Positions 8,176 through 61,589 of a stretch of DNA of 64,000 nt are shown one piece after another. Position 1 is the stretch's first letter, and the number at the start of each line of letters is the position of its first letter. The notes beneath the pieces are model-generated. The model saw nothing but the letters and a program-made list of their open reading frames with translations. It ran no database searches and was not told the DNA's origin. Made by a program: the position numbers and the translations under genes. This stretch comes from Scyliorhinus canicula (Eukaryota): contig NC_052172.1 in the NCBI RefSeq assembly GCF_902713615.1, positions 5,995,337 through 6,059,336 of the forward strand, written 5' to 3'.

Positions 8176-8656
8176 GTCCCTTCAGCTGGGCGCAACAAGC
8201 AAAGTTTTCCTGGCACCAGTTCCACAGATTCCCATTTCATTAAGTTCAGTTGCACACCCTGCTTTTGTATTTTTCTTCCTGCTCACCTCTTTTTCCTGTC
8301 CTAATTTCATTTTACAGAGTATCTGAAGGGGATCTTTTGGAGACCGGAAACTTTGCAACGCCTCAAGGTCTGACAGAGTCACTTGAAAAATCAGGAGCGT
8401 TGGCCTTTAAATGTAGAATGAAAAAGTGTTTGTCCTGTCGATGGGAAAGGCTTTCAAACATCAGTTTGACTGGAAACCCCAGACGCACACCCTCCAGTCA
8501 GAGTGTTCCAGCGCACTGACTGGAAAAAGCTTTTGAAAACAGTGACACAACCAGACAAAAGCATTGTGTCATTGTCGACGTGGTGAAAGTTGTCCTGTTT
8601 GTGGATGAGGCCTGAACTGATAATCCAACCTGGAGAGACACAAGGATTGCTGCACC

Positions 8657-9247
8657 ATGGAGAAACCATGGAAATGTGGGGACTGCGGGAAGGGATTTAA
8701 CTACCCCTCCAAGCTGGAAACCCATCGACGCAGCCACACTGGGGAGAGACCGTTCACCTGCTCCCTGTGTGGGAAGGGATTCACTCTGTTGTCAAACCTC
8801 CAGACGCACCAGAGAGTTCACACCGGGGAGAGACCGTTCACCTGCACTGAATGTGGACAGGGATTCACTACCTTATCCAACTTGCTGAAGCACCAACGCA
8901 TTCACACGGATCAGAGACCGTTTAAGTGTTCTGACTGCGTGAAGAGCTTTAAGAGCAGAAATGAACTGCTGACGCACCGGCGCACCCACACTGGGGAGAG
9001 GCCGTTTAGCTGCTCCCTGTGTGGGAAGGGATTCACTCAGTTGTCACACCTTCTGAGGCACCAGCGGGTTCACACTGGGGAGAAGCCATTCAGTTGCCTG
9101 GTGTGCGGGAAGGGATTTGCTAATTCCTCTGAGCTTCTTAGACACCAGCCAGTTCACACTCGGGAGAGACCGTTCACCTGCTCTGTGTGTGGGAAGGGAT
9201 TCACTCGATCGTTCACTCTGCTCAAACACCATCGAGTTCACAAGTGA
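8657..9247 (+). CDS. C2H2 zinc-finger protein, 7 tandem fingers, 196 aa, no effector domain seen
   Basis: Seven C-x2-C-x12-H-x3-H units joined by TGERPF/TGEKPF linkers. Exon acceptor (ctaat branch, pyrimidine tract, TTTACAG) at 8317/8318. In-frame stop at 8621-8623 upstream of the ATG. Confidence 0.85.
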
Positions 9248-14990: not shown

Positions 14991-15773
14991 CAACCGTGAT
15001 TCAAAAGTACGGATTAAATGCCTCGGTAAATATTCCACCAGCATAAAGAACCAGGAGTCGGGTTAATGAGCCTTCGATATCGAAGACTAAAATGTGACAA
15101 TTTAAAGTTTTAAGTGCACACAAATGTATTATAATAAAAGACATGCAGTTTTCAAGACGCACTTAGATATAGCATTTGGGGTGAAGGGGATCAAAGGATA
15201 TGGGGAGGGAAGGTGGAATCAGATTATTAAATTGGATGATCAGCCATGATCATAATGAATGGTGGAGCAGGCTCGAATGGCCGAATGGCCTCCCTCCTAT
15301 TTTTCCATTTGGTGGTTGTCCAAATATTGTAACACCAGATAAATCCCGAAAATAAAACATAGTCTGTTATTATTTCTATCAGAGAGCTCCAGCTTTAGAC
15401 TTGTTACAGACATTAAAGATTTAAAAAACGAAGCTAAATATTCACCAAGTGTTAAATTAAGTTGATCCGTGTGTGTGTGAGACTGGAAAGGAGGAAGGGT
15501 CTGAATCTAATCTAAATGTCTAACAAGTTTAAAATGATTTGAGTTTGGGTTGAGATATTTATAATGAATTCTGGGGTTGTGTGATGAATGGTTCCATAGA
15601 TGATGTTTATTTGATTACTCCTAATTTATACCCCATATTTGGTGGTAGGACCACCTGTTTAATAAGAATGGCCATTCAGTTTAGAACATAGAACATAGAA
15701 CGATACAGCGCAGTACAGGCCCTTCGGCCCTCGATGTTGCACCGACATGGAAAAAATCTAAAGGCCATCTAAC

Positions 15774-18677
15774 CTACACTATGCCCTTATCATCCATATG
15801 CTTATCCAATAAATTTTTAAATGCCCTCAATGTTGGCGAGTTCACTACTGTTGCAGGTAGAGCATTCCACGGCCTCACCACTCTTTGCGTAAAAAACCCA
15901 CCTCTGACCTCTGTCCTATATCTATTACCCCTCAATTTAAGGCTATGTCCCCTCGTGCTAGCCACCTCCATCCGCGGGAGAAGGCTCTCGCTGTCCACCC
16001 TATCTAACCCTCTGATCATTTTGTATGCCTCTATTAAGTCACCTCTTAACCTTCTTCTCTCTAACGAAAACAACCTCAAGTCCATCAGCCTTTCCTCATA
16101 AGATTTTCCCTCCATACCAGGCAACATCCTGGTAAATCTCCTCTGCACCCGTTCCAAAGCTTCCACGTCCTTCCTATAATGAGGCGACCAGAACTGTACG
16201 CAATACTCCAAATGCGGCCGTACTAGAGTTTTGTACAACTGCAACATGACCTCATGGCTCCGGAACTCAATCCCTCTACCAATAAAGGCCAACACACCAT
16301 AGGCCTTCTTCACAACCCTATCAACCTGGGTGGCAACTTTCAGGGATCTATGTACATGGACACCGAGATCCCTCTGCTCATCCACACTACCAAGAATTTT
16401 ACCATTAGCCAAATATTCCGCATTTCTGTTATTCTTTCCAAAGTGAATCACCTCACACTTCTCCACATTAAACTCCATTTGCCACCTCTCAGCCCAGCTC
16501 TGCAGCTTATCTATGTCCCTCTGTAACCTGCAACATCCTTCCGCACTGTCTACAACTCCACCGACTTTAGTGTCGTCTGCAAATTTACTCACCCATCCTT
16601 CTGCGCCCTCCTCTAGGTCATTTATAAAAATGACAAACAGCAACGGCCCCAGAACAGATCCTTGTGGTACGCCACTCGTAACTGAACTCCATTCTGAACA
16701 TTTCCCATCAACTACCACTCTCTGTCTTCTTTCAACTAGCCAATTTCTGATCCACATCTCTAAATCACCCTCAATCCCCAGCCTCCGTATTTTCTGCAAT
16801 AGACGACCGTGGGGAACCTTATCAAACGCTTTACTGAAATCCATATACACCACATCAACTGCTCTACCCTCGTCAACCTGTTCAGTCACCTTCTCAAAGA
16901 ACTCGATAAGGTTTGTGAGGCATGACCTACCCTTCACAAAACCATGCTGACTGTCCCTAATCATATTATTCCTATCTAGATGATTATAAACTGTATCTTT
17001 TATAATCCTCTCCAAGACTTTACCCACCACAGACGTTAGGCTCACCGGCCTATAGTTACCGGGGTTATCTCTACTCCCCTTCTTGAACAAAGGGACCACA
17101 TTTGCTATCCTCCAGTCCTCTGGCACTATTCCTGTAGCCAATGATGACCTAAAAATCAAAGCCAAAGGCTCAGCAATCTCTTCCCTGGCTTCCCAGAGAA
17201 TCCTAGGATAAATCCCATCTGGCCCCGGGGACTTATCTATTTTCACCTTGTCCAGAATTGCCAACACTTCTTCCCTACGCACCTCAATGCCATCTATTCT
17301 AATAGCCTGGGTCTCAGCATTCTCCTCCACAATATTATCTTTTTCTTGAGTGAATACTGACGAAAAGTATTCATTTAGTATCTCGCTTATCTCCTCAGCC
17401 TCCACACACAACTTCCCACCACTGTCCTTGACTGGCCCTACTCTTACCCTAGTCATTCTTTTATTCCTGACATACCTATAGAAAGCTTTTGGGTTTTCCT
17501 TGATCCTACCTGCCAAAGACTTCTCATGTCCCCTCCTTGCTCGTCTCAGCTCTCTCTTTAGATCCTTCCTCGCTTCCTTGTAACTATCAAGCGCCCCAAC
17601 TGAAACTTCATGCCTCATCTTCACATAGGCCTCCTTCTTCCTCTTAACAAGTGATTCCACTTCTTTGGTAAACCACGGTTCCCTCGCTCGACCCCTTCCT
17701 CCCTGCCTGACTGGTACGTACTTATCAAGAACATGCAATAGCTGTTCCTTGAACAAGCTCCACATATCCAGTGTGCCCAACCCTTGCAGCCTACTTCTCC
17801 AACCAACACATCCTAAGTCATGTCTAATGGCATCATAATTGCCCTTCCCCCAGCTATAACTCTTGCCCTGCGGGGTATACTTATCCCTTTCCATCATTAA
17901 TGTAAAGGTCACCGAATTGTGGTCACTGTTTCCAAAGTGCTCACCTACCTCCAGATCTAACACCTGGCCTGGTTCATTACCCAAAACCAAATCCAATGTG
18001 GCCTCGCCTCTTGTTGGCCTGTCCACATATTGTGTCAGGAAACCCTCCTGCACACATTGTACAAAGAATGACCCATCTAATGTACTCGAACTATATCTTT
18101 TCCAGTCAATATTTGGAAAGTTAAAGTCTCCCATAACAACTACCCTGTTACTTTCGCTCTTTTCCAGAATCATCTTCGCCATCCTTTCCTCTACATCCCT
18201 AGAACTATTAGGTGGCCTATAGAAAACTCCCAACAGGGTGACCTCTCCTTTCCTGTTTCTAACCTCAGCCCATACTACCTCAGAAGAAGAGTCCCCATCT
18301 AGCATCCTTTCCACCACCGTAATACTGTCCTTGACTAGCAGCGCCACACCTCCCCCTCTTTTGCCCCCTTCTCTGAGCTTACTAAAACACCTAAACCCCG
18401 GAACCTGCAACAACCATTCCTGTCCCTGCTCTATCCATGTCTCTGAAATGGCCACAACATCGAAGTCCCAGGTACCAACCCATGCTGCCAGTTCCCCTAC
18501 CTTATTTCGTATACTCCTGGCATTGAAGTAGACACACTTCAAACCACCTACCTGAACACTGGCACCCTCCTGCGAAGTCAAATCTGTGCTCCTGACCTCT
18601 ATACTCTCAATCTCCCGTACCCCAAAACTACAATCCAGGTTCCCATGCCCCTGCTGAATTAGTTTAAACCCCCCCAA
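15774..18677 (-). CDS. CR1 ORF2p: APE endonuclease plus reverse transcriptase (967-codon open frame, no ATG until codon 125)
   Basis: YFNARS, ISETW, VMGDFNFP, SDHN (APE); NYRPVSLTS, QHGF, DFSKAFDKV, GVPQGSVLGP, FADDTK (RT). Confidence 0.95.
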   Translation of the reverse strand: MGGFKLIQQGHGNLDCSFGVREIESIEVRSTDLTSQEGASVQVGGLKCVYFNARSIRNKVGELAAWVGTWDFDVVAISETWIEQGQEWLLQVPGFRCFSKLREGGKRGGGVALLVKDSITVVERMLDGDSSSEVVWAEVRNRKGEVTLLGVFYRPPNSSRDVEERMAKMILEKSESNRVVVMGDFNFPNIDWKRYSSSTLDGSFFVQCVQEGFLTQYVDRPTRGEATLDLVLGNEPGQVLDLEVGEHFGNSDHNSVTFTLMMERDKYTPQGKSYSWGKGNYDAIRHDLGCVGWRSRLQGLGTLDMWSLFKEQLLHVLDKYVPVRQGGRGRAREPWFTKEVESLVKRKKEAYVKMRHEVSVGALDSYKEARKDLKRELRRARRGHEKSLAGRIKENPKAFYRYVRNKRMTRVRVGPVKDSGGKLCVEAEEISEILNEYFSSVFTQEKDNIVEENAETQAIRIDGIEVRREEVLAILDKVKIDKSPGPDGIYPRILWEAREEIAEPLALIFRSSLATGIVPEDWRIANVVPLFKKGSRDNPGNYRPVSLTSVVGKVLERIIKDTVYNHLDRNNMIRDSQHGFVKGRSCLTNLIEFFEKVTEQVDEGRAVDVVYMDFSKAFDKVPHGRLLQKIRRLGIEGDLEMWIRNWLVERRQRVVVDGKCSEWSSVTSGVPQGSVLGPLLFVIFINDLEEGAEGWVSKFADDTKVGGVVDSAEGCCRLQRDIDKLQSWAERWQMEFNVEKCEVIHFGKNNRNAEYLANGKILGSVDEQRDLGVHVHRSLKVATQVDRVVKKAYGVLAFIGRGIEFRSHEVMLQLYKTLVRPHLEYCVQFWSPHYRKDVEALERVQRRFTRMLPGMEGKSYEERLMDLRLFSLERRRLRGDLIEAYKMIRGLDRVDSESLLPRMEVASTRGHSLKLRGNRYRTEVRGGFFTQRVVRPWNALPATVVNSPTLRAFKNLLDKHMDDKGIV

Positions 18678-19585
18678 AGAGCACTAACAAATCTTCCCCC
18701 CAGGATATTGGTGCCCCTCAGGTTCAGATGTAGACCATCCTGTCTATAGAGGTCCCACCTTCCCCAGAACGAGCCCCAGTTATCCAGAAATCTGAATCCC
18801 TCCCGCCTGCACCATCCCTGTAGCCACGTGTTTAATTGCTCTCTCTCCCTATTCCTCATCTCACTATCACGTGGCACGGGCAACAACCCAGAGATAACAA
18901 CTCTGTTTGTTCTCGCTCTGAGCTTCCATCCTAGCTCCCTAAAGGCCTGCCTGACATCCTTGTCCCCTTTCCTACCTATGTCGTTAGTGCCAATGTGGAC
19001 TACGACTTGAGGCTGCTCCCCCTCCCCCTTAAGGACCCGGAAAACACGATCCGAGACATCACGTACCCTTGCACCTGGGAGGCAACATACCAAACGTGAG
19101 TCTCTCTCGCTCCCACAAAATCTCCTATCTGTGCCCCTGACTATTGAGTCCCCAATTACTAATGTTCTACTCCTTTCCCCCCTTCCCTTCTGAGCAACAG
19201 GGACAGACTCCGTGCCAGAGGCCCGTACCCCATGGCTTACCCCTGGTAAGTCCCCCCCCCCACAAGTATCCAAAACGGTATACTTGTTACTCAGGGGAAC
19301 GACCGCAGGGGGTCCCTGCACTGACTGCTTCTTCCCAGTCCCTCTTACAGTTACCCATCTATCTCCAGTCTTTGGTGTAACTACTTCCCTGAAGCTCCTA
19401 TCTATGACCCCCTCTGCCTCCCGAATGATCCGAAGTTCATCCAGCTCAAGCTCCAGGTCCCTAACACGGTTTTTGAGGAGCTGGAGTTGGGTGCACTTCC
19501 CACAGATGAAATCAGCAGGGACGCTGACGGCGTCCCTCACCTCAAACATTCTGCAGGAGGAGCATTGTACTGCCTTCCCTGACAT
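18659..19585 (-). CDS. CR1 ORF1p: N-terminal Cys cluster, coiled coil, SGNH-esterase domain (308 aa from ATG 19585)
   Basis: CSSC...CGKC, then esterase blocks LVIGDSIVRG, VVHIGTNDI and QDGLHLN. The ORF-track start at 19696 is GTG; the first ATG is at 19585. Confidence 0.88.
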   Translation of the reverse strand: MSGKAVQCSSCRMFEVRDAVSVPADFICGKCTQLQLLKNRVRDLELELDELRIIREAEGVIDRSFREVVTPKTGDRWVTVRGTGKKQSVQGPPAVVPLSNKYTVLDTCGGGDLPGVSHGVRASGTESVPVAQKGRGERSRTLVIGDSIVRGTDRRFCGSERDSRLVCCLPGARVRDVSDRVFRVLKGEGEQPQVVVHIGTNDIGRKGDKDVRQAFRELGWKLRARTNRVVISGLLPVPRDSEMRNREREQLNTWLQGWCRREGFRFLDNWGSFWGRWDLYRQDGLHLNLRGTNILGGRFVSALWGGLN

Positions 19586-20084
19586 CACCTCTAGATTAAA
19601 AAAAAAACAAGAAAAAGAAAAAGAAAGGAAGAGCTTACCTGATATTACTTCAAACCCTGCTCCCGCTGAAAGGAAAGCAAATTTAAAGGCACTCACTCAC
19701 CTTCACGACAGGCCCCTGCTCCCCAACCACTGTGGGGTGGGGGGGTTGGTTAGAGGAGGAGGTAGGGTGGGAAACACTCACGAAGTGAAATGTTGTGAAT
19801 TTATTCTTGAATAACTGAATCTTGGGTAACGGTCATGTTGCTCAAGGGTGGGCTCAGCAAGATAATAAGAATTGAGGCCTAGATTTATCTGATGGCAGTT
19901 TTAATTTTCAAAACTAGAATTTGTTTGCTTATATGTTATTTGAATAGCAGGAACAACAGAATACTGTTCTTTAGGGGTGTGTATTCCTTATCAACAGCTT
20001 CACATTGTTGTGAAGGGAGTTAACCAGCTTGTTTGGCAAGCCAGCTTTGACTTCTGCGAAACTATATACATATTTTTTAAAGTG

Positions 20085-21166: not shown

Positions 21167-24100
21167 TCCCCCCCGAACCTCAGACCTCCCCAACTTCACA
21201 GACCCCCCCAAAACTCACAGGCACCCCCTGAACCCCGCACACACCCCCTGAACCCCGCCGACACACCCTGAACCCCACAGGCACCCTCTGAACCCCGCAG
21301 ACACGCCCTGAACCCCACCGACACCCCCTGAACCCCGCAGACACCCCCTGAACCCCGCAGACACCCCCTGAACCCCGCCGACACCCCCTGAACCCCACCT
21401 ACACCCTCTGAACCCCGCAGACACCCCCCTGAACCCCGCAGACACCCCCTGAACCTCGCCGACACCCCCTGAACCCCACAGGCACCCCCTGAACCCCGCA
21501 GACACCCCCCTGAACCCCGCAGACACCCCCTGAACCTCGCCGACACCCCTGAACCCCACAGGCACCCCCTGAACCCCACAGGCACCCCCTGAACCCCACA
21601 GACACCCCCTGAACCACGCAGGCACCTCCTGAACCTCGCAGGCACCCCCTGAACCCCGCCGACACCCCCTGAACCCCACCTACACCCCCTGAACCCCGCA
21701 GACACCCCCTGAACCCCGCAGACACCCCCTGAACCCCACAGACACCCCCTGAACCCCGCCGACACCCCCTGAACCCCACAGGCACCCCCTGAACCACGCA
21801 GGCACCCTCTGAACCCCACAGGCACCCCCTGAACCCCGCATACACCCCCTGAACCCCGCAGACACCCCCTGAACCCCACAGACACCCCCTGAACCACACC
21901 GACACCCCCTGAACCCCGCAGACACCCCCTGAACCCCGCAGACACCCCCTGAACCATGCAGGCACCCTCTGAACCCCGCCAGCACCCCCTGAACCCCGCC
22001 GGCACCCCCTGAACCCCGCCGGCACCCCCTGAACCCCACCGACACCCCCTGAACCCCGCCGGCACCCCCTGAACCCCGCCGGCACCCCCTGAACCCTGCC
22101 GGCACCCCCTGAACCCCGCCGGCACCCCTTGAACCCCGCAGACACCCCCGTGAACACCGCCGACACCCGCTGAACCCCGCAGGCACCCCCTGAACCCCGC
22201 AGGCTCCCCCTAAATCACGCCGACACCCCCTGAACCCCACAGGCACCCCCTGAACCCCGCAGACACCCCCTGAACCCCGCAGGCACCCCCTGAACCCCGC
22301 AGACACCCCCTGAACCCCGCAGGCACCTCCTGAACCCCGCAGACACCCCCTGAACCCCACAGGCACCCCCTGAACCCCACAGGCACCCCCAGAACCCCGC
22401 AGGCACCTCCTGAACCCCGCAGACACCCCCTGAACCCCGCAGACACCACCTGAACCCCGCAGGCACCCCCTGAACCCCGCAGACACCCCCTGAACCCCAC
22501 CGACCCCCTGAACCCCGCAGACACCCCCTGAACCCCACCGACCCCCTGAACCCCACAGGCACCCCCTGAAACCCGCAGACACCCCCTGAACCCCACCAAC
22601 AGCCCCTGGACCCCACAGGCACCCCCTCAACCCCGCCGGCACCCCCTGAACCCCACAGACACCCCCTGAACCCCAGAGGCACACCCTGAACCCCGCTGAC
22701 ACCCCCTGAAACCCGCTGACACCCCCTGAACCCCGCAGACACCCCCTGAACCCCACCTACACCCCCTGAACCCCGCAGACACACCCCTGAACCCCGCAGA
22801 CACCCCCTGAACCCCGCAGACACCCCCTGAACCCCACAGGCACCCCCTGAACCCCACAGACACCCCCTGAACCACGCAGGCACCCCCTTAAACCCACAGG
22901 CACCCCTGAACCCCGCAGACACCCCCTGAACCCCGCAGGCACCCTCTGAACCCCACAGGCACCCCCTGAACCCCGCATACACCCCCTGAACCCCGTAGAC
23001 ACCCCCTGAACCTCGCCAACAACCCCTGAACCCCACAGGCACCCCCTGAACCCCGCAGGCACCCCCTGAACCCCACAGGCACCCCCTGAAACCCACAGGC
23101 ACCTCCTGAACCCCACAGGCACCCCCTGAACCCCACAGGCACCCCCTGAACCCCACAGCCACCCCCTGAACCACACCGACACCCCCTGAACCCCGCAGAC
23201 ACCCCCTGAACCCTGCCGGCACCCCCTGAACCCCGCCGGCACCCCCTGAACCCCGCCGGCACCCCCTGAACCCCACCGACACCCCCTGAACCACACCGAC
23301 ACCCCCTGAACCCCGCAGACACCCACTGAACCCTGCCGGCACCCCCTGAACCCTGCAGACACCCCCGTGAACCCCGCCGACACCCGCTGAACCCCGCAGG
23401 CACCCCCTGAACCCCGCCGGCACCCCCTGAACCCCACAGGCACCTCCTGAACCCCACAGGCACCTCCTGAACCCCACAGGCACCCCCTGAACCCCACAGG
23501 CACCCCTGAACCCCACAGGCACCCCCTGAACCCCACAGACACCCCCGAACCACACCGACACCCCCTGAACCCCGCAGACACCCCCTGAACCCCGCAGACA
23601 CCCCCTGAACCCCGCAGGCACCCACTGAACCCCGCAGACACCCCCTGAACCCTGCCGGCACCCCCTGAACCCCGCCGGCACCCCCTGAACCCCGCCGGCA
23701 CCCCCTGAACCACACCGGCACCCCCTGAACCCCGCCGGCACCCCCTGAACCCTGCCGGCACCCCCTGAACCCCGCCGGCACCCCCTGAACCCCACCGACA
23801 CCCACTGAACCCCGCAGACACCCACTGAACCCTGCCGGCACCCCCTGAACCCCGCAGACACCCCCGTGAACCCCGCCGACACCCGCTGAACCCCGCAGGC
23901 ACCCCCTGAACCCCGCCGGCACTCCCTGAACCCCGCAGGCTCCCCCTAAATCACGCCGACGCCCCCTGAACCCCACAGGCACCCCCTGAACCCCGCAGGC
24001 ACCTCCTGAACCCCGCAGACACCCCCTGAACCCCGCAGGCACCCCCTGAACCCCGCAGACACCCCCTGAACCCCACCAACAGCCCCTGGACCCCACAGGC

Positions 24101-24670
24101 ACCCCCTCAACTCCACAGGCACCCCCTGAACCCCACAGACACCCCCTGAACCCCACAGGCACACCCTGAACCCCGCTGACACCCCCTGAAACCCGCTGAC
24201 ACCCCCTGAACCCCGCAGACACCCCCTGAACCCCGCAGGCACCCCCTGAACCCCGCAGTCACCCCCTGAACCCCACAGACACCCCCTGAACCCCACAGAC
24301 ACCCCCTGAACCCCGCAGGCACCCCCTGAACCCTACAGGCACCCCCTGAACCCCACAGGCACTCCCTGAACCCCACAGGCACTCCCTGAACCCCACAGGC
24401 ACCCCCTGAACCCCACCGGCACACCCTGAACCCCACAGGCACCCCCTGAACCCCGCAGGCACCCCCTGAACCCCACAGGCACCCCCTGAACCCCGCAGGC
24501 ACCCCCTGAACCCCACAGGCACCCCCTGAACCCCACCGGCACACCCTGAACCCCACAGGCACCCCCTGAACCCCACAGACACCCCCTGAACCCCACAGGC
24601 ACCCCCTGAACCCCGCAGGCACCCCCTGAACCCCACAGACACCCCCTGAACCCCGCAGGCACCTCCTGAA
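21167..24670. repeat. GC-rich minisatellite, 20-bp unit (consensus about CCCCCTGAACCCCRCAGRCA), about 175 copies
   Basis: Directly visible tandem array; strongly C-rich on plus, G-rich on minus. Confidence 0.97.
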
Positions 24671-36480: not shown

Positions 36481-36940
36481 GATTTTACAGCTTTAAGTAA
36501 CACAAAAGACATAGGAGCAGAATTAGGCCATTCAGCCCATTGGGTCTACTCCCCCATTCAATCATGGCTGATATGTTTCTCATCCCCATTCTTCTGCCTT
36601 CTCCCCGTAACCCCAAGAACCTATATATCTCTGTCTCAAAGACACTTCGTGATTTAATAAACTTGGAATATAAGAGTTGGTTTAAGGAGATTAAGTGCAA
36701 ACAAATGAATTTAGTAAAAAATCTTCCAGCACTCAGACCCTACGGAAAGAAAGTTGTGAATGGCCAGATTGTTCAGTGGCAAAGTTATCCAACACAAATA
36801 CAAAAGAAGCACAAAGCAGTGTTTAATGATGTAGGAATCCAGGAGGACTCGTTATAATTCTGACTGACAGAATATAGTTTTATTTAGATTTTTTTAAACT
36901 TAGAGAACCCGATTCTTTTTCTTTACCCAATTAAGGCAGA

Positions 36941-38774
36941 ATTTGGCAGGTAGGATCAAGGAAAACCCAAAAGCTTTCTATAGGTATGTCAGGAATAAAA
37001 GAATGACTAGGGTAAGAGTAGGGCCAGTCAAGGACAGTGGTGGGAAGTTGTGTGTGGAGGCTGAGGAGATAAGCGAGATACTAAATGAATACTTTTCGTC
37101 AGTATTCACTCAAGAAAAAGATAATATTGTGGAGGAGAATGCTGAGACCCAGGCTATTAGAATAGATGGCATTGAGGTGCGTAGGGAAGAAGTGTTGGCA
37201 ATTCTGGACAAGGTGAAAATAGATAAGTCCCCGGGGCCAGATGGGATTTATCCTAGGATTCTCTGGGAAGCCAGGGCAGAGATTGCTGAGCCTTTGGCTT
37301 TGATTTTTAGGTCATCATTGGTTACAGGAATAGTGCCAGAGGACTGGAGGATAGCAAATGTGGTCCCTTTGTTCAAGAAGGGGAGTAGAGATAACCCCGG
37401 TAACTATAGGCCGGTGAGCCTAACGTCTGAGGTGGGTAAAGTCTTGGAGAGGGTTATAAAAGATACGATTTATAATCATCTAGATAGGAATAATATGATT
37501 TGGGACAGTCAGCATGGTTTTGTGAAGGGTAGGTCATGCCTCACAAACCTTATCGAGTTCTTTGAGAAGGTGACTGAACAGGTAGACGAGGGTAGAGCAG
37601 TTGATGTGGTGTATATGGATTTCAGTAAAGCGTTTGATAAGGTTCCCCACGGTCGGCTATTGCAGAAAATACGGAGGCTGGGGATTGAGGGTGATTTAGA
37701 GACGTGGATCAGAAATTGGCTAGTTGAAAGAAGACAGAGAGTGGTAGTTGATGGGAAATGTTCAGAATGGAGTTCAGTTACGAGTGGCGTACCACAAGGA
37801 TCTGTTCTGGGGCCGTTGCTGTTTGTCATTTTTATAAATGACCTAGAGGAGGGCGCAGAAGGATGGGTGAGTAAATTTGCAGACGACACTAAAGTCGGTG
37901 GAGTTGTAGACAGTGCGGAAGGATGTTGCAGGTTACAGAGGGACATAGATAAGCTGCAGAGCTGGGCTGAGAGGTGGCAAATGGAGTTTAATGTGGAGAA
38001 GTGTGAGGTGATTCACTTTGGAAAGAATAACAGAAATGCGGAATATTTGGCTAATGGTAAAATTCTTGGTAGTGTGGATGAGCAGAGGGATCTCGGTGTC
38101 CATGTACATAGATCCCTGAAAGTTGCCACCCAGGTTGATAGGGTTGTGAAGAAGGCCTATGGTGTGTTGGCCTTTATTGGTAGAGGGATTGAGTTCTGGA
38201 GCCATGAGGTCATGTTGCAGTTGTACAAAACTCTAGTACGGCCGCATTTGGAGTATTGCGTACAGTTCTGGTCGCCTCATTATAGGAAGGACGTGGAAGC
38301 TTTGGAACGGGTGCAGAGGAGATTTACCAGGATGTTGCCTGGTATGGTGGGAAAATCTTATGAGGAAAGGCTGATGGACTTGAGGTTGTTTTCGTTAGAG
38401 AGAAGAAGGTTAAGAGGTGACTTAATAGAGGCATACAAAATGATCAGAGGGTTAGATAGGGTGGACAGCGAGAGCCTTCTCCCGCGGATGGAGGTGGCTA
38501 GCACGAGGGGACATAGCCTTAAATTCAGGGGTAATAGATATAGGACAGAGGTCAGAGGTGGGTTTTTTACGCAAAGAGTGGTGAGGCCGTGGAATGCCCT
38601 ACCTGCAACAGTAGTGAACACGCCAACATTGAGGGCATTAAAAAATTTATTGGATAAGCATATGGATGATAAGGGCATAGTGTAGGTTAGATGGCCTTTA
38701 GATTTTTTCCATGTCGGTGCAACATCGAGGGCCGAAGGGCCTGTACTGCGCTATATCGTTCTATGTTCTATGTT
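36941..38774 (+). mobile_element. 5'-truncated young CR1 copy of the same subfamily as the 15682-19797 element
   Basis: ORF 36943..38685 is almost identical to the C-terminal 580 aa of ORF2 at 15774..18677, with only scattered substitutions; same 3' UTR and TTCTATG tail. Confidence 0.95.
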
Positions 38775-40521: not shown

Positions 40522-42210
40522 TGTGATGAATGGTATTAGTAACTGCTGTAGCTGTACCTTGCCATTAATGCATTGGCCCTTTAAGACTGGGCTTGGAACC
40601 CTGGGGGACTCCGCCTCTGGCTCCGCCCCCAGGAAACGGTATATAAGATGAGGCTCACTCGGCAGCATGTGGTGAGCACACTTCTCGGCAGCTGTTCAGT
40701 TCTCTGATGATTAAAGCCTTTGAATTACCAATCTTCTCTCCTGTGTCGTAATTGAGGGTATCTCAATTTAATCATCAGACGCATCAAGATGGACAGCGCT
40801 CTAAAGCCGGAGAAACTCAACCTGGACGCTCGGTCGCTGGAAGCCCCGAAAATGTTTAAATATTGGCTCCGGTGCTTTGAGGACTATCTTGACTCCTCAG
40901 TGACTGATGTCGACGGCGCTCGCAAGCTGAGATTCCTACATGTCCGAGTGGGCCACCGACTCTCCTCCGTAATCGAGACGCTATGACCTACGAAACTGCG
41001 GTTGAGATACTGAAGAAATACTTCGTAAAGCCGATTAACGAGGTACACGCCAGACATTTGCTCTCAACCTGCAGCCAGCGCTCCGGGGAAACTCTGGACG
41101 AATACATGGAGAGACTCACTGCACTCGCGAGGAACTGCAACCATAAAGCAGTGACGGCAGAAGCCCACATGAATTTGCATATTCGCGATGTCTTTGTGTC
41201 CGGTATCAGGTCCTCGTACATCCGGCAGCGGCTCCTAGAAGACGGGGCAAAGGATCTCCAAGGCACGGTAGTGCTCACCTCTTCTCTAGAAATGGCCCAC
41301 CGTAACCTCCGTACATACTCCGCGGACCTTGCAAACCCCTCTCGATCCCCTCCAGACTCGGCCACGCTACAGGCCTGCGCCACGCGGTGATCCGCTCACT
41401 CCGGGGGTTCCCCATGCTATTTCTGTGGGCACGGCCAGCACCCCCGTCAACGTTGCCCAGCCCGCTCCACGATCTGCAATGACTGCGGGAAGAAAGGGCA
41501 CTTCGCTAAGTCTGCCTGGCTGGGCCCAAAGGCCACAAACAAAAGCCTCACCAGGCCCAGAAATCAAGCTCCCGGCCACAAAGGCCCCGCAACGTGGCTG
41601 CGCGGCGACCGGCCACACCCACTTCCGACGAGTAATCGACCTCGTGCGAGTCATGGGAGCGGCCATCTTGGCGGCGACCATCTTTGAACCCCGACACGTG
41701 CGACCGACGGCAGAGGCCATTTTGTGACTCCGGGCGGCCATTTTGTGAGTCCGACTTAACCGAGCACTCTGACTACCCGCAACTAGGAGCGATCACGCTC
41801 GATCAATCGCGGCCAAAGCACCTGCGAAACTCAATGATGCGGGTACAAATCAACGACCATGACACTCCCTGCCTATTCAACTCCGGGAGCACAGAGAGCT
41901 TTATTCATCCAGACACAGTAAGGCGCTGCTCTCTGCGCACCCACCTCGCCTCCCAAACTATCGCCCTCGCCTCAGGGTCCCATTTGGTTCAAATCACGGG
42001 GTATTGTGTCGCTGACTTTGCAATTCAAGGTGCTGAATATACCCGTTTTAAACACTACATCCTCCCTCACCTCTGCGCCCCCCTGCTGCTCGGTCTGGAC
42101 TATCAGTGCAGCCACCGGAGCCTGACACTGATGTTCGGCGGACCCCTGCCCCCACTCACAGTATGCAGCCTGATGACACTCAAAGTGGCACCACCCCCCC
42201 TTCGCGATTC
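40522..42210 (+). mobile_element. Truncated Gypsy LTR retrotransposon: 5' LTR (40522-40765), frameshifted gag with CCHC knuckles, protease
   Basis: TG...CA LTR with TATATAA. gag MDSALKPEKL...QRSGETLDEY...IRDVFVSG; CYFCGHGQHPRQRC and CNDCGKKGHF; protease-like LFNSGSTESFI. No RT. Flanked by minus-strand CR1 fragments (approx. 39985-40520, 42330-42960). Confidence 0.82.
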
Positions 42211-43157
42211 CACATCACTATGGGCCAGCGAGTTCTAAAAATTCACCACCACCTGGAAGAAGTAGTTCCTCCTCATCTCAGTTCTAAATCTACCGCCTCT
42301 CAACCTATATCCATGGACCTTCATTCTAGATTTCCCAGAAGAAGGAATACTTGTTCCATGTTTAATTAATCAATCCCTTTTCGTATTTTATACACCTCGA
42401 TCAGATCCCCTCTCATCGTTCTAAACTCCAGCGAGTATAACCCAAAACTGTTTAATCTCTCCTCATACCACAACCCTTTCATCCCCAGAATCAATCTGGT
42501 GAACCTCCTCTGAACTGCCTCCAATGCCACCACATCCTTCCTCAAATAAGGAGACCAAAACTGGACACAATACTCCAGATGTGGTCTCACCAACATCCTA
42601 TACAATTGCAACAACACTTTGCTACCTTTACACTCCAGTCCTTTTGCAATAAACTCTGACATTCCATTTGCCTTTTTAATGACATGTTGTACCTGCATAC
42701 CGACTCTCTGTGAGTCATGAACAAAGACACCCAGATCCCTCTGCACAGGGGCATCTTGAATCTGCTTTCCATTCGGCAATAATTTGCCTTTCTATTTTTT
42801 TGGTCAAAATGGATAACCTCCTAGCCTATCTGTATCCATCTGGTAAGTCTCCTCTTCACTGCCTGCTTTGCCACCCATTTTAATATCATCCACAAACTTT
42901 GCGATGTTACATTCTGTCCCTGCTTGCAGATCATTTATATAGATTGAAACTATTGAGGTCAACGAGTCTTTGCAACTTCCTGCTGCTGCCAGCTCCACAA
43001 ACCAAACAGAGAGCGAGGAGGGGGCTGCTAATGTGAAAGGGAGGGTCTTCACTCAGAGTGGGCGGGACTGGGCTGTCAATCAGACAGTAGGAGGAGAAGG
43101 TTTCAGTGTTGTCTTCCCAGTGATGAAGATTGTTTGAAAGGGAAGTGGAAGTGGAAG

Positions 43158-43676
43158 ATGTATCTGCAGCTGACTCTGTTAATCATGTTTCACCGTAAGG
43201 AACTTTCCTAACAACCATCCTTATCCAATATCTCACTTTCCTGTCCACTTGCTGACCTCGCCTTTTGTTCATTTTCCTTTGTTCTTTCTCATTCTCTTAA
43301 TTTCTCTTTCAATTCTTGTTCCTCACTTTCCTTCATAGAGTGTCCCATCTCCTGACCTTCTCTCCCTGTCTCTTTCTCAGATGTGAAGTCTCAGACTATC
43401 CTCCAGACTCCCGCCGCCCTCTCCAGATTTCCTGGGCAGGGAGTGATAATAAAGTGCACCGTGGAGGAAGCAGGTATCCCGACCATGTTGTGGTACAGAC
43501 AATGCCCGGGGAAGGAACTGAAGGTAATGTTTTATTCCCCAACCGTTGAAAGTGTGAGTCCAGATGAGCCGGTGGACGGTTTCACAGCGAAGCGGCCCAG
43601 TGGCTCCGAGTTCAACCTGGAGTCCTCCAGCCTGCGGGTTAATCACTCGGCCGTGTATTACTGCGCCTGGAGTCTT
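43158..43676 (+). CDS. TRBV: TCR beta-type V segment V1 (leader 43158-43194, intron, V exon 43381-43676), open frame
   Basis: Leader MYLQLTLLIMFH with phase-1 GTAAGG donor; acceptor TTTCTCAG; V exon VKSQTILQTP...KC...WYRQCPGKEL...HSAVYYCAWSL. Confidence 0.88.
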
Positions 43677-43715
43677 CACCGTGACTCAGAGAGATGGAGC
43701 AGTTCAACAAAAACC
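43677..43715 (+). other. 23-RSS of V1 (variant heptamer CACCGTG)
   Basis: CACCGTG + 23-nt spacer + ACAAAAACC. Confidence 0.92.
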
Positions 43716-44472
43716 CCAAAGGCAGCAGGAAACAGCTGTGAATGAATACATCACTTACCGCCTTCTTCTACCCGTGTTATTTTCTTTTGCTTACGAGGAG
43801 TTATAAAGTGGATAAAAAAACACTGCATGTGGAGCAGAGAAATATGTGTACAGTAGGACACCACAGCTGAGAGATTCTAACTACCAGGAAAGGATGAACA
43901 AATAGAGGGCTCATCTCTGTGGATAGTAAAGACTGAGGTTTATCCCAATAAACGTTTTATATTGTGAAATGGTTTGTTAGGGTTCATGCAGAGACGTGTC
44001 CACTGGTAGGGAGGCCCAGAAATGTAAGCAATCGTTAATGATAATCAGTGAGATAGCCAATCCTGGATTAGGAGGAGCTCCCTTATCCACAGAGTGATTA
44101 GAATATGGAACTTGCTGCCACAGACAGTGGATTGAAGAGAATTGTAAAGATTAATTGCAGGGCAAGTTGAATCAACAGATGAGGCAGAAATATAATAGAA
44201 GAAAATGTTGGTGGGTTGGGTGTGACACAAGGAGAGAGAGAAGAGCCCATGTGCGAAAGAGAGGGCGAGAGAAGGGTTTTTGTGTGAGAGAGAGGGAGAG
44301 TGGGAATAGAGAGTGTGCGTCTGGCTCACTGAAATACTCAGAGTTCTCACTCACTCTCACCTCCACACACAAACACACACTCACCAGTGAGTGAGGGTGA
44401 ATGTGAGAGCGCCCTGAGCCGTGAATGAGCTGGACACACAAACTCTGACACTCTCAGTGTACTCTGATGGTC

Positions 44473-46281: not shown

Positions 46282-46739
46282 ATGATGAATCTATTTCTGG
46301 GTCTAATCTTCATGTTTGATTGTGAGGGAGATTTTCAAACAATAGTTCTTGTTAATGAGATTTTCTTTGCTGCTTTCTGTCCCTCTCCATTGCTCTGAAT
46401 TTACCCATTTACTGATCTCCTTCTCTCCCTGTCTCTCTCCCAGTGGTCGATTCGCAGACTATCCGCCAGACTCCAGCCGCTGTCTCCAGATTTCCCGGGG
46501 AGGAGGTGGAGCTGAAATGCACTGTGGACGGCAGCAGTAATCCTGATCTGTATTGGTACAGACAGCACCCGGGGAAGGAGCTGCAGTGGATGTTTTACTC
46601 CACGGGTATTGGTCACATAGATCCAGAGGGGTCGGTGGACGGCTTCAGCACCACGAGGCCGACTGACTCCAAGTTCAACCTGGTGTCCTCCAGTCTGCGG
46701 GTGAATCACTCGGCCGTGTATTACTGCGCCTGGAGTCTT
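46282..46739 (+). CDS. TRBV: TCR beta-type V segment V2 (leader 46282-46321, V exon 46444-46739), open frame but non-canonical RSS
   Basis: Leader MMNLFLGLIFMFD with GTGAGG donor; V exon VDSQTIRQTP...CTVDGSSNPDLYWYRQ...FYSTGIG...YYCAWSL, strongly TRBV30-like. Confidence 0.9.
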
Positions 46740-46778
46740 CAGAGTGACTCAGAGAGATGGAGCAGTTCAACAAAAACC
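46740..46778 (+). other. 23-RSS of V2 with defective heptamer CAGAGTG
   Basis: CAGAGTG + 23-nt spacer + ACAAAAACC; third base of the invariant CAC is changed. Confidence 0.9.
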
Positions 46779-47213
46779 TCAAAGGCACCAGGAAACGGCT
46801 GTTGCAGACAGTTGCGGCTGCATCAATCTGCTGTTCTTTTCTCTAATGTGGTAAACACATTCTGACGTTTAGAAGAGACCAGTTACAATAAAAGTGAGAG
46901 ATTAGATTAAGAATGTCTGGAGAAATTGAAGACCAAAGTTAACAGGAATGTTACCAGACCTGATTGATTCCAGCTTCAGGAAAGTTGAATGTTTGTTTCT
47001 GTTGGGAAATGAAAATTGTGAATTGTCCTTCTGACATTTTTGGAAATTATGAGAGGGTTGATAGTATCTATGTGCGGAAGTTCAAAACACAACAAAAATA
47101 AAATAACCAATAGAACAATAAAAAAGAGAGAAGGGATGGAGAAGGAAAGGGGAAGATAGCTAGTGACGGACTGTGGGGCTTGACACACTGAATCTGCCCT
47201 TCCATTCCCAATA

Positions 47214-48283: not shown

Positions 48284-48759
48284 ATGTATTTGTTACTGAG
48301 TCTGATTATGTTATTTCAATGTAAGTGATTTTTCAAGCAGCAGCTAACATCCAAGCTTCATATTTGTTTCATTGCTTCTCTCCTATTAAATATTTTTCCT
48401 TCCCTGAATCTCCATAAGAATGTTGCTGTTTATTGATCACCTCATCTCCCGATTTCCTTTCAGATGTGAACTCTGAGACAGTCCACCAGTCTCCCCCAGC
48501 AGTTTCCAAATCTCCTGGAGAGACAGTGGAACTGAAGTGCACTGTGGAGGGTGCCAGTAGCGGATCCATGTTCTGGTACAGACAACACACCGGGAGGGGG
48601 CTGAATCTCATGTTTTATTCAGCAGCTACACAAAGTGTGACTCCATCGGAGACGGTGGACGGTTTCAGCGCCCAGAGACCGAATGGCTTCCAGTTCAACC
48701 TCAAGTCCTCCGGCCTGGGGGCGAATCACTCGGCCGTGTATTACTGTGCCTGGAGTATT
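48284..48759 (+). CDS. TRBV: TCR beta-type V segment V3 (leader 48284-48320, V exon 48464-48759), apparently functional
   Basis: Leader MYLLLSLIMLFQ with GTAAGT donor; V exon VNSETVHQSP...C...WYRQ...YYCAWSI. Confidence 0.92.
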
Positions 48760-48798
48760 CACAGTGACTCAGAGAGACGCAGCAGTTCAACAAAAACC
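48760..48798 (+). other. Canonical 23-RSS of V3
   Basis: CACAGTG + 23 nt + ACAAAAACC. Confidence 0.95.
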
Positions 48799-49389
48799 CT
48801 AAAGGCAGAAAGAAACAGCTGTGAGCGAGAGAGCTCTGCGGTGCTTCAGTCTGTTTGGGGTTTTGTGGACGGAAGATGTTTGTGTAAAGACAGGTGTCAG
48901 AATAGCAGTGAGTGGTTCGACATTGTGACACTGAGGAAGCTGCAGAGAATCATTTTCAACGATGATGTCAGAACTGCAACTTTGTGACTGTCTAGAATTG
49001 TAATATCAAAAGTTCAGCATTCTATCCACTGACATTGTGTGTGCTGTGTCTCCACAGGGAGAGCTGAGGGAGCTGCGGTCTGATGAAACACACAATTGCC
49101 TATAACAAGGCTGGAGAGGCCTTTCAGTCCCTTTAGTATGAACATCGGGAGGGGAATCAGCCTCTAGATTCTGTTGCACAGGAACAAGAAGATGCCTTCC
49201 AGGCCCTCGAGCTTGTTACTCTGAAACAGGAGGAGGCCATTCAGCACCTCGAACCTGTTGCAAAGTAAAGGAAGTGGTCATTCATTACTTCCACCAGTTC
49301 AACAGGTCAAGGCCATTAAATCAATACACATGTCTGCATTGTTTAGTTGCATTACAGCGTCTCTTTATCCTGAAAGTGAGATACACCGT

Positions 49390-50120: not shown

Positions 50121-53100
50121 GCACAAAATCCCTCACCTGCAAGTATCTAAAGTCGTTCCCTCTCGCCAGCCCAAACTTCTCCTCCAGCGCCGGGGGGGGG
50201 GGGGGAGCAACAAAGCTAAATCGCTGGCTTTGAAAGCAGACCAAGCAGGCTAGCAGCACGGTTCGATTCCCGTAACAGCCTCCCCGAACAGGCGCCGGAA
50301 TGTGGCGACTAGGGGCTTTTCACAGTAACTTCATTTGAAGCCTACTCGTGACAATAAGCGATTTTCATTTCATTTTCATTCATGCTCGGATAAGTTCCCT
50401 TCCAGGAACAGATTCCCCCATCCTCACAATCCCCACCCTTCTCCACAGTCGATACCCCCCATCCATGTTCCCCGGGGCAAATCGGTGGTTGCCGCAGATT
50501 GGGGTCCACACCGATGCTCTTCCCTCCCCTACATGCCTCCTCCACTGGCCCAAGTTCCGAACAGCCGCCACCACCATTGGGCTGGTGGAGTACCATGCAG
50601 GCGGAAGGGGCAGAGGTGCCGTGACCAGGGCTGGTAAGTTAGTGCCCCTGCACGAAGCAGCCTCCATCTGCTCCCAAACCGACCCCGCACCCACCATCCA
50701 TTTCCTTATCATCGCTATGTTGGCCGCCCAGTAATAGTTGCTGAAGTTCGGCAACGCCAGCCCCCGTTCTCCTCTGCTCCTGTCAAGCATCACCCTCTTC
50801 ACCTGCGGGGACTTCCCTGCCCATACAAATCCCAGAATAATTTTATTCAGCCTCTTAAAGAAGGACCACGGGATAAAGATGGGGAGACACTGAAAAACAA
50901 ACAACAACCACAGGAGAATCATCATCTTAACAGTTTGCACCCTCCCCACCAATGACAGTGGGGGCGCATCCCACCTCCGGACCTCCTCCCTCACTCTTTC
51001 CACCAGTCAGGACAGGTTGGCTTATGCAACCTACCGCAGTCCCATGCCACCTGAATCCCAAATATCGGAAATTCTCTCCCACTCGTGTGAACTACAACCT
51101 CTTCAGCCTACTCTCCTGCCCCCTCGCCTGAATTACAAACAACTCGCTCTCAGTCATGTTCAGTTTGTATCCGGAGAACCGGCCAAATTCCCTCAGGGTT
51201 GCCAGAATACCGTCCATCCCCACCATTGGGTCCGACACATATAACAGCAGATCATCCCCGTATAACGAGGCTCTATGTTCCACTCCCCCCCCCCCAGACC
51301 AGCCCTTTCTAACCCCTAGAAGCTCTCAGTGCAATTGCCAGCGGCTCTATGGCCAGCGCCAACAGCAGTAGGGAGAGAGGGCAGCCCTGTCTTGTCCCAC
51401 GTTGCAGTCTAAAGTAGTCGATGTCGTTCTGTTCGTCCTTACACTCACCTCCGGGGCCTGATACAATAGCCTAAATCAGTCGATGAACCCCGCCCCGAAC
51501 CCGAACAGTCCTAGTACCTCCCACAGATAATCCCACTCGTCCCGGTCAAAAGCCTTTTCGGCATCCATGGCTACCACTATCTTTACCTCCCTACTCGGGG
51601 GGGGGGGGGGGGCATCATAATCACGTTGAGCAGTCTTCTTATTTTGGCCACCAGCTGCCTCCCCTTTACAAACCCGGTTTGGTTCTCCACAATTACATCC
51701 GGTACACAGTCCTCAATTCTGGTCACCAGAATTTTGGCCAGTAACTTGGCATCTATGTTGATAAATGAGATTGGCCTATATGACCCACTGCCTCCGGGTC
51801 CTTATCCCATTTCAGAATGAGCGAGATGGTGGCCTGCAACATCCTCGGGGGGTAAACTCCCTCTGGCTCTTGCCTCATTAAAGACCTTAACCAGCACCGG
51901 CCCCACTATCTTGGCAATTTTTTTGTAAAACTCCACCAGATACCCGTCCGGCCCTGGGGCTTTACCCGACTGCATGACCTTCAGGCCCCTCAATACCTCT
52001 TCGATCCTGACCAGGGACCCCAGTCTATCCACCAACCCCCTCCCCACTCTTGGGAAGGTCAGTCCATCCAGGAATCGCCTCATCCCCCCCGGTCCCCCGG
52101 GTGGTTCCGAAGTGTACAGCTTCCTATAAAAGTCGCTAAAGACCTTGTTCAGCCCTGCTCGATCACCCACTAGATTATCTTCCCCATCCACTACCCTCCC
52201 TATTTCCCTAGACACTTCCCTCTTCCTCAGTTGCTGTGCAAGCATTCTACTGGCCTTCTCCCCGTGGTCATAAATTGTGCCTTTTACCTTTCTAAGCTGC
52301 TCTACAGCCTTGCCTGTAGTCAACACCCCAAATTCAGCCTGCAGCCTCTGTCGTTTCCTGAGTAACTCTGGCCTTGGGGATTCCGCGTAACTCCTGTCCG
52401 ACCATAGAATTTCCTTAATCAGTTGGTCCGTCTCTGCCCTATCTGTCCTGTCCCTGCCCAGATTGAAATCAACTCCCCTCTCGCCACTGCCTTCAGTGCC
52501 TCCCAGAGCACCGCTGCCGAGACTTCTCCAGTATCGTTCACCTGCAGGTAATTCTGCATGCATTTCCTCAGCCTCTCACACACTGCCTCCTCCGCGAGTA
52601 GCCCAACTTCCAGCCTCCATGGTGGGCGTTGAAAGCTTTCCTTACAAACCTGCAGGTCTACCCAGTGTGGAGCATGGTCCGATATGGCAATTGCCGAATA
52701 TTCTTCCCGCACCATTCCGGCCAGCAGGTCCCTACTCACCACAAAGTAGTCAATTCAGGAATACACCTTGTGGACATGGGAGTAATACAAGAACTCCCTC
52801 GCCGTCAGCCAGCTAAATCTCCACGGATCTGCTTCCCCCATTTGCTCCATGAACCCTCTCAGTTCCTTTGCCATCGGTGGCAACCTGCCCGTTCTTGAGC
52901 ATGACCGGTCCAGGCTCGGGTCCAGGACTGTATTAAAGTCCCCGCCCATGATCAACTTTTGCGAGTCCAAGTCGGGAATCTTCCCTAGCATTCTCCTAAT
53001 AAAATCCACATCGTCCCAATTAGGGGCATACGCACTGACCAGGAGTACTCTCACCCCTTCGAGCTTACCCCTCACCATAACGAAGCTTCCTCCCCCATCC

Positions 53101-55073
53101 ACGACTGTGCCCTCCGCCTCAAATTGTAACCTTTTATTAACCAGGATTGCAACCCCCCTCGTCTTAGAATCAAGCCCCGAATGAAAGATGTGACTGACCC
53201 AGCCCTTCCTTATCCTAACCTGGTCTGCCACTTTCAGGTGTGTCTCCTGCCACAAGAAAATGTCCGCCTTCAGAACCCGCAGATGAGCAAACACATGAGC
53301 CATCTTCACTGACCCGTTTAACCCTCTAACATTCGAGGTGATCAGCCTGGTTGGGGGGCACTTCGCCCCCCCTTTGCCAATCAGCCATCCCCTTTCCTTG
53401 GCCAGCCCCCCAGCCATGTGTTGCGCTTCCTCTGGTCCACCTCCTGGTTGGCTCCACCCATGACCTCCTCACTGTTACCATGCCCAGTTTCCATCCCCGT
53501 CAGCAGAACAACCCCCCTCCCCCCCAGCAATACCATCCTATCACCTAGCCCCTGCTCTAATCTAACTATATGGACACCCTCCCACCTCGTCTCCAGTTGA
53601 CTAGCTGCACTCCGCTAGCCTGGGGCTCCCAGCCTCGGCACCAGCCTGTCTCCCACCCATTGTTCCCATTCACCCCTTCCTCTGATCCCTCCATACCACT
53701 TCCCCAGATCAGCCGTACTTAAGCAAACACTCTATACAAGTCATAGACAGCCCCCACAATAGCACACTTCAAGTTAAACAAGAAAAAAAGAGATATGAAA
53801 TAACAGGCACTCTTCAGTCCTACCCAACCAGACACAGAGAAAGATTACACAAAGTTCCCCGAAGCATCCATTTTAACCCAACCCTTTTAACTGTTTTCTT
53901 TATTAATCCCCCCCGGCCTCCCCCCCCCAGCCAAACTCCAACTAAGCAAAGAGCCCAAACAGGAAACATTCAGGAAAACCACGCAAAAAGCACGTAAAAA
54001 CAGGAAGAAAAAGATACATCCCAAAACAGGAGAGACACCACATATACATAAAAGCTCTAACATGAGCCCAAACATCCTCAGCTCAGGGTCAGCCCTAGCT
54101 TCTTAACGAAGTCCATTGCATCTTAGGGTTCCTCGAAATAGTGGTGCTGACCCTTCTACGTAACCCACAGTCGCGCTGGAAAAAGCAACCCGGATTTCAC
54201 CTTGTTTTTATACAGTATCTCCTTCACCTGCCTGTAGCCTCCCCTCCTCCTGGCCACCTCCGCGCTCAAATCTTGGTACACACATAGGGTGGTATTGTCC
54301 CAAATACAGCTTTGTGTGCTCTTTGCCCATTGCAGCACCCGTTCCTTGTCCAGGAACCTGTGAAAGCGTACCACCATCGCTTGTGGGTGACCCCCTTGTC
54401 ACGGCTGCCTCAGCTGCACTCTGTATGCCCTGTCCACCACCGGTGAGCCTGGGAACACCTCGTTCACCAGCAATGTCTGAAACATACCCTCCACATATGT
54501 GGCAGCGTCTAGCCCCTCTGCCCCCTCTGGGAGGCCAATGATTCTCACATTCTGCGGCGAGATCCGTTGTCCAGGTCCGCCAGCCTTTCCAGAAGCACTT
54601 TTTGCTGGTCCCTCAGCCTCCTGATCTCTACATCCGCCACCGTTTGAAAGTCAGCCTGCTCCTCCACTGATTTCTCCAACTGCTGGAGCTTCTCAGCCTG
54701 ATCATCCAGCCTTTTCCCCATCCGATCAATCGACTTCTGAAGCGGCTCCATGTTGTCACGCTTCAGAGCCAAAAAGCCCTCCTGCATGGCTTGCAGCAGC
54801 TGCTCCATTGTGGGCTGGGCTGTCGGCGCCTTGCTCTGAACACCAGCCATGCCGGTCTCTCTCACAGCCTCCACTGTGCCCTTACTCAACTACTTCTGCT
54901 GTTTACAGTCCCTCTGGCTTCTTAGATCCATACAATTCTGTATGGGTCCTGTGCCTGAGTACTATTGCTTTCCAGTTCCGCGCTCAAAAGCTCAACAAAA
55001 TCAGGGGAAAAGGTCCAAAAGTTCGACCGAAACGGGAGCCACCTTCTCCCTCATAGCCGCCACCGGAAGTCCC
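50121..55073 (-). mobile_element. L1-clade LINE with intact 5' end, decayed ORF1 and ORF2, 3' end missing
   Basis: 5' end GGGACTTCCGGTGGCGGC. ORF1 pieces 54545..54889 and 54156..54377; endonuclease 52755..53417 (LITSNVRGLNG, QETHL, MGGDFN); RT and downstream pieces to RYLQVRDF. SINE tail inserted at about 50230-50375. Confidence 0.88.
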
Positions 55074-59314: not shown

Positions 59315-59353
59315 CACAGTGACTCAGAGAGATGGAGCAGTTCAACAAAAACC
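59315..59353 (+). other. Canonical 23-RSS of V4
   Basis: CACAGTG + 23 nt + ACAAAAACC. Confidence 0.95.
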
Positions 59354-61550: not shown

Positions 61551-61589
61551 CACAGTGACTCCGAGAGAAGGAGCAGTTGAACAAAAACC
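61551..61589 (+). other. Canonical 23-RSS of V5
   Basis: CACAGTG + 23 nt + ACAAAAACC. Confidence 0.95.

Follow-up and report, generated by a model that had tools for sequence, protein, structure and literature searches.

The translation of the second open reading frame (ORF2) of long interspersed nuclear elements (LINEs) is called an open question in reviews (PMC3894237, PMC11485995, PMC2881922). The general model, termination-reinitiation, derives from human L1 and silkworm SART1, and in both elements the RNA is bicistronic and ORF2 output is coupled to translation of the first open reading frame (ORF1) (PMC2881922, PMC3894237, PMC11485995). In Dictyostelium, TRE5-A and TRE3-A are reported to require a -1 frameshift for ORF2 (PMC5911963). 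Here we analyzed the ORF1-ORF2 junction of a CR1-type LINE in a 64-kb stretch (the window) of the 4.22-Gb, 646-contig genome of the shark Scyliorhinus canicula. Like TRE5-A and TRE3-A, which belong to another clade and host, this is a LINE of the apurinic/apyrimidinic endonuclease (APE) type whose ORF2 would be reached by a -1 frameshift. Likewise, it resembles L1 and SART1 in having a bicistronic RNA whose ORF2 output would be tied to ORF1 translation, whereas those elements make separate proteins, and a conserved in-phase slippery heptamer is not described for them in the available text. Our comparison of sequences indicates that this CR1, ordinary in appearance, carries at its junction a genuine recoding-type signal that is deeply conserved, and -1 programmed frameshifting at U_UUA_AAC followed by a stop probably yields a 1270-amino-acid ORF1-ORF2 fusion that would carry both endonuclease and reverse transcriptase.

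The element occupies 15682..19787 of the window, and all coordinates given for it refer to the minus strand. Both of its frames are open, and its 5′ edge at about 19787 is common to sibling copies. The 3′ edge consists of short terminal repeats of TTCTATG units without poly(A) (15682..15700), with loose ends of reads at 15682-15689, and no target-site duplication of at least six bases was found around the copy. An octamer 3′ end has been noted for avian CR1 (PMC2612034). ORF1 (18659..19585) runs from the ATG at 19585 to the TAA at 18659 and encodes 308 amino acids ending in GGLN, with an N-terminal Cys-pair motif (CxxC...CxxC) followed by an SGNH esterase domain; it matches Pfam Lipase_GDSL_2 (E = 8.7e-15) and PDB 4c1b, an ORF1-encoded esterase protein (E = 3.3e-26). 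The ORF2 frame (15774..18683, 969 amino acids) carries an APE endonuclease at residues 52-255 and a reverse transcriptase at residues 536-758, and no protease domain was detected in the copy by Pfam. With its esterase ORF1, APE-reverse transcriptase ORF2, and 3′ repeats lacking poly(A), the element has the features of a full-length vertebrate CR1 LINE, and it shares its esterase ORF1 and APE-reverse transcriptase ORF2 with the canonical vertebrate CR1 elements (PMC13343379; PDB 4c1b). A 5′-truncated copy of the same CR1 family, here family A, lies at 36904-38770 on the plus strand of the window with its reverse transcriptase frame open.

As a preliminary description of this DNA had stated, ORF2 lies in the -1 phase relative to ORF1 and opens after a TAG just upstream (18686-18684). 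That description placed the first in-frame ATG of ORF2 at codon 125; counted over the whole open frame, it is codon 127 (18305), whereas counting from the TTG at codon 3 gives the earlier figure, and it does fall inside the endonuclease, past the motifs NARS (residue 54) and ISETW (residue 79). The linker from the ORF1 stop to the endonuclease (18543..18658) is open in the -1 frame and AUG-less. The two X_XXY_YYZ heptamers reported near the end of ORF1 were both recovered, in ORF1 phase and within the overlap with the open -1 frame: G_GGU_UUA at 18665..18671 and U_UUA_AAC at 18662..18668, the latter directly followed by the ORF1 stop TAA (18659..18661). Only the last two among the 306 in-phase positions of ORF1 hold strict heptamers, against a background of 4/967 in-phase positions in ORF2, and the probability of GGT, TTA, AAC is 0.0145 given the fixed protein and the element's own codon use. 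A slip at U_UUA_AAC is predicted to give the 1270-amino-acid product. U_UUA_AAC is the coronavirus shift site, and retroviral gag-pol also uses -1 sites.

Aligning junctions across CR1, as the preliminary description had suggested, revealed that TTTAAAC-stop and the -1 phase are kept in deeply diverged lineages. Loci in the shark genome were anchored on ORF1 minus its last 12 residues, i.e., upstream of the motif. In family A, TTTAAAC-TAA is found in 30/30 loci and is in phase in 20 of them. TTTAAAC plus TAR is present in 20/20 loci of family B, whose ORF1 is 44% identical (endonuclease in the -1 phase in 16), in 19/20 of family C (18 in the -1 phase), and in 12/12 of family E, while family D is in phase in 14/18, with four loci having an altered G-run length. 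Across 11/11 representative lineages, the heptamer is followed by TAA or TAG. A sample that was led by an upstream pattern and includes decayed copies, made up of the first 30 of 799 matches and 34 non-family-B copies among the next 70 listed, contained 50/64 collinear copies (14 dropped), of which 37 are exact and 44 are within one mismatch. The junction of family C resembles, by eye, a consensus labelled ScyCan_CR1-1a, and a divergent ORF1 of Scyliorhinus torazame matches 94%-identical copies in this genome.

The heptamer is conserved beyond protein constraint. Lineage-weighted conservation reaches 0.88-0.92 at third positions -7, -4, and -1, versus 0.32-0.72 at twelve upstream third positions. 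As an internal control, 10 lineages whose frames are open were aligned by codon. Away from the junction, unchanging amino acids keep a single codon in only 1/17 ORF1 and 0/13 ORF2 columns, so synonymous sites are saturated, and the third base is kept in only 1/126 variable-residue ORF1 columns. At the junction of all 10 lineages, Leu is always TTA, Asn is always AAC, and the -1 frame always reads TTT AAA CTA, with the T preceding TTA present under Gly, Thr, His, Cys, Ser, and Ala codons. The invariance of TTA, AAC, and the preceding T despite saturated synonymous sites therefore implies a constraint on the nucleotides themselves. In addition, family B and loci L072, L078, and L080 have the -1 frame closed 1-2 codons ahead of TTT, which confines entry to about the heptamer site; in family B, this frame opens just 10 nucleotides before the stop. 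The stop-to-endonuclease distance ranges from 80 to 233 nucleotides in other lineages, with the -1 phase kept throughout. The early closure in these four lineages also means that G_GGU_UUA, which the preliminary description had offered as a second signal, is not a general one: it is limited to some shark families, and as a general shift site it was rejected for its absence elsewhere.

A protein-level search not guided by the motif returned 109 ORF1 homologues, 79 of them aligning to the C-terminal region. C-terminal Leu-Asn is present in 53/79, or in 53/56 when only homologues terminating at the aligned position are counted (the other three end in IN, LNY, and SP). The remaining 23 end elsewhere, most of them being broken gene models or teleost esterases that belong to a more distant group; the teleost esterase ORF1s of that group end in xTD, unlike the LN found here. 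The LN-ending homologues span 29-86% identity and include named sharks, rays, frogs, and a gull, and in the alignment the residues preceding LN vary freely while L and N are invariant. Two broken gene models, one from a ray, run GFKL straight into the endonuclease, showing the same bases in the -1 frame. One homologue, P0008, bears the name of a Pseudomonas aeruginosa SGNH hydrolase but shares 76% identity with ORF1 and has LN at its end; it is likely shark DNA contaminating a bacterial record.

Similar junctions also occur outside this genome. Of the 30 loci from a metagenome scan, the seven host contigs with an intact ORF1 end all carry TTTAAAC-TAG, with the endonuclease in the -1 phase in 5/5 contigs where it is visible; the other loci run off the contig end, lack the region, or are unrelated. 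Two frame-broken loci still have the heptamer nearby. By protein similarity, 6/7 of the intact contigs are bird-like, their hosts not being on record. Viral contigs gave no match, and GTDB contigs gave three weak matches, none with an ORF1 end. Among consensuses published under the label CR1 (Crack in one case) in the supplement of PMC13343379, available at 400 letters per sequence, the motif stands at an ORF1-like end, judged by eye, in 17 of 20 motif matches; this set was motif-led and has no denominator. The labels of the 17, as read, include alligator, crocodile, bowfin, bullfrog, chimaera, stingray, coelacanth, sawfish, and dogfish.

A canonical -1 stimulator is a stable base-paired structure about 5-9 nucleotides downstream of the shift site. 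The fold and G-quadruplex predictions that the preliminary description had proposed yielded no stable fold downstream of the heptamer, although no dedicated pseudoknot program was run. In this copy, minimum free energy z scores were unremarkable at -0.16, 0.37, and -0.38 for 45, 70, and 100 nucleotides. The CAGG/CCUG stem of that description is not conserved, and it was rejected along with any other shared hairpin as the stimulator; no stable fold is shared across lineages. A double G-tract (GGGG-N3-GGG in this copy, 18642..18651) follows the heptamer after a 10-nucleotide spacer and is a candidate stimulator; the G share is 0.97 at stop+10 and 0.94 at stop+11, and the 14-nucleotide G-tract window ranks in the top 0-3.8% by G-run score within each of 11 elements. 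ViennaRNA does not predict a G-quadruplex in this copy, and the linker limit of its G-quadruplex model is shorter than the 18-nucleotide loop that such a structure would need here. A strong G-quadruplex is predicted in family B only among the 11 lineages. No shared long-range partner for the G-tract was found within 1.4 kb on either side, the best duplex sites differing per lineage. A peptide role of the encoded G-x-G is possible, although GGG accounts for just 58/208 Gly codons elsewhere in the compared ORF2 stretches. Natural use of G-quadruplex frameshift stimulators was not known, according to a 2016 frameshifting review (PMC5009743). In some old copies (L138, L152, L193, L198, L199, and L247), the post-stop G-tract is expanded to long G runs and appears as a slippage hotspot.

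In the mechanism that we propose, the tRNA-Leu and tRNA-Asn would re-pair from UUA and AAC to UUU and AAA by tandem -1 slippage. The majority of ribosomes would terminate at UAA and release the ORF1 protein (ORF1p), while a minority would read on (GGLN-LIQQG) into an esterase-endonuclease-reverse transcriptase fusion, which would set a Gag:Gag-Pol-like ratio. More weakly, the pause may come from the adjacent stop together with the conserved G-tract 10 nucleotides downstream instead of a classical pseudoknot. By analogy, this arrangement would resemble coronavirus and retroviral sites in heptamer class, in phase, and in fusing a structural protein to a polymerase as a minority product. It differs from them in lacking a predicted pseudoknot or stable stem, in having the zero-frame stop as the very next codon, in belonging to an element without long terminal repeats, and in having no protease domain by Pfam. 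In the arterivirus PRRSV, a CCCANCUCC motif 10-11 nucleotides 3′ of where the frameshift takes place is bound by an nsp1beta-PCBP complex (PMC5009743). CR1 may be comparable to this virus in having a short linear motif at a spacing of about 10-11 nucleotides in place of a fold, whereas its motif is rich in G and has no known binding protein.

The frameshift predicted in the preliminary description is supported by the comparative evidence on heptamer, stop, -1 phase, and frozen synonymous sites, and several observations weigh against it. The lineages are related, and their counts are not independent trials. Among the near-identical family A copies, a small indel upstream of the heptamer has put 10/30 out of phase, and nine copies of this family have in common a one-base deletion, at about 18694, which shifts the heptamer out of its phase. 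Of the copies of an old decayed family, just 22/39 have the exact heptamer, with G at -4 in eight copies that are scattered on a rough tree (32 of the 39 copies were treed), and one six-copy branch has five variant heptamers. Moreover, no stable or shared base-paired stimulator was found in 33 folds (z from -2.33 to +1.2, one below -2). Finally, 4/11 lineages have an AUG of the ORF2 frame at stop+2 or +5, and four more, including this copy, have an AUU there.

Five dispersed family A copies (L013, L020, L021, L023, and L024) share their 5′ end (19239), the out-of-phase deletion, and an ORF2 stop, and are likely a non-autonomous or duplicated set. The other copies with this deletion carry variants of different sub-branches, so that recurrent G-run contraction with copying in trans or duplication is a likely origin.

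Start-like codons near the stop are what termination-reinitiation would use, with ribosomes restarting after UAA or UAG at a nearby AUG, AUU, or any codon in the -1 frame to make a separate ORF2 protein (ORF2p). Family C reads TAATG, L072, L074, and L077 have ATG at +5, and ATT stands at +2 or +5 in families A, D, E, and B. The existence of out-of-phase family A copies also fits this explanation, as do the restart of SART1 at UAAUG (PMC3894237) and the AUG-independence of L1 ORF2 translation (PMC11485995). The preliminary description had held that an in-frame AUG ahead of the endonuclease would speak against frameshifting; such an AUG exists in family C (TAATG), in family B (at +137, where the linker is open 137 nucleotides before the first AUG), and in three bird-like contigs (at +5), and is absent from this copy, which has ATT, not the ATG at the stop of the SART1 type or of the type associated with a termination upstream ribosomal binding site (TURBS). 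However, L071, L078, and L080 have no start-like codon near the stop, and elsewhere its position alternates between +2 and +5. The TURBS-like motif UGGGA is absent upstream in 5/11 lineages, and in the rest it varies in position and is part of the coding sequence. Reinitiation leaves the frozen synonymous sites upstream of the stop unexplained. We regard reinitiation, the main rival, as an unlikely route to ORF2, though it may perhaps operate alongside frameshifting.

The frames could also be joined by polymerase error, with slippage of transcription or of the reverse transcriptase in the G7 run before the heptamer adding a base. Genomic copies with G8 or G11 are indeed in-frame fusions (L117, L123-L125, L127, and L128, five of the six picked for long frames), whereas family B and the bird-like loci lack the G run, the G-run fused copies do not form one clade but are spread over the family D tree, and no junction insertion was seen among the best 12 of 27 indels in RNA reads. 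These reads came from four RNA runs that cover the junction at a depth of about 20-190, represented by their best-supported rows, in which element transcripts and intronic copies are not separable. We give polymerase slippage hardly any probability. It is also very improbable that the motif is kept for another role, such as the C-terminal Leu-Asn of ORF1p, a splice or promoter signal, or RNA packaging, with a spliced or sub-genomic RNA serving for ORF2. ORF1 does keep L and N invariant, and joints do occur in the RNA reads (15 of 28 listed), but a constraint on the protein would leave TTA, AAC, and the T ahead of them free to vary, and the junction has no conserved AG or pyrimidine tract. Among the best 15 of the 28 joints, none has CT..AC ends and none joins ORF1 with ORF2; in families A, D, and E, even a sub-genomic RNA would have no AUG ahead of the endonuclease. 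Frameshifting at U_UUA_AAC remains our preferred explanation.

Natural single-frame ORF1-ORF2 copies occur in the genome (L104, L117, L123-L125, L127, L128, L217, and L218) and arose by G-run gain, short deletion, or a lost stop; L104, L217, and L218 are separate one-off fusions by short deletion or lost stop. A propagating lineage with constitutive fusion was considered and rejected, as the G8 copies are scattered on the family D tree. A weak search for longer proteins gave four matches, none of which is an unbroken read-through of the junction.

The window holds several other features. Five immunoglobulin V-set segments lie on the plus strand (43356-43745, 46416-46865, 48418-48987, 58991-59449, and 61209-61588), three of them followed by exact CACAGTG-23-ACAAAAAC signals, and from our reading they form a T-cell-receptor-like antigen-receptor variable cluster. 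An exon with seven C2H2 zinc fingers is found at 8624-9247 (plus strand), a decayed gag/aspartyl-protease retroelement fragment at 40908-42238 (plus strand), and a decayed APE-type LINE of another kind at 50380-54889 (minus strand). A GC-rich 20-bp minisatellite at 21218-24670, with about 173 copies and 88% matches, yields long spurious open reading frames.

Our literature search found no report of CR1 frameshifting; the original CR1 descriptions lay outside its coverage, and an earlier passing remark may exist. In the main text of a 2026 survey (PMC13343379), 'frameshift', 'overlap', and 'translat' do not occur. Similarly, the available text of PMC13343379, PMC5009743 (which does not contain 'CR1'), PMC3894237, PMC5911963, PMC4316615, PMC11485995, PMC2734521, PMC2881922, and PMC3905857 does not mention programmed frameshifting in CR1. 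In sharks and rays, 22-34% of the genome consists of CR1-group elements (PMC13343379). If the proposal is true, it would explain how CR1 makes its reverse transcriptase, in a retrovirus-like way and from a compact cassette of about 30 nucleotides, and the annotation of ORF2p would change. The enzyme would be born fused to the esterase ORF1p, which would offer a simple route to ribonucleoprotein assembly with a fixed stoichiometry. More tentatively, and as a possibility that we hold to be rather doubtful, the dominant jawed-vertebrate retrotransposon family may have made a Gag-Pol-like reverse transcriptase fusion by -1 frameshifting since before the split of sharks and bony vertebrates, driven by the adjacent stop and a linear G-rich motif that would be protein-bound or form a G-quadruplex, so that the frameshift would be G-tract-stimulated and possibly host-controlled.

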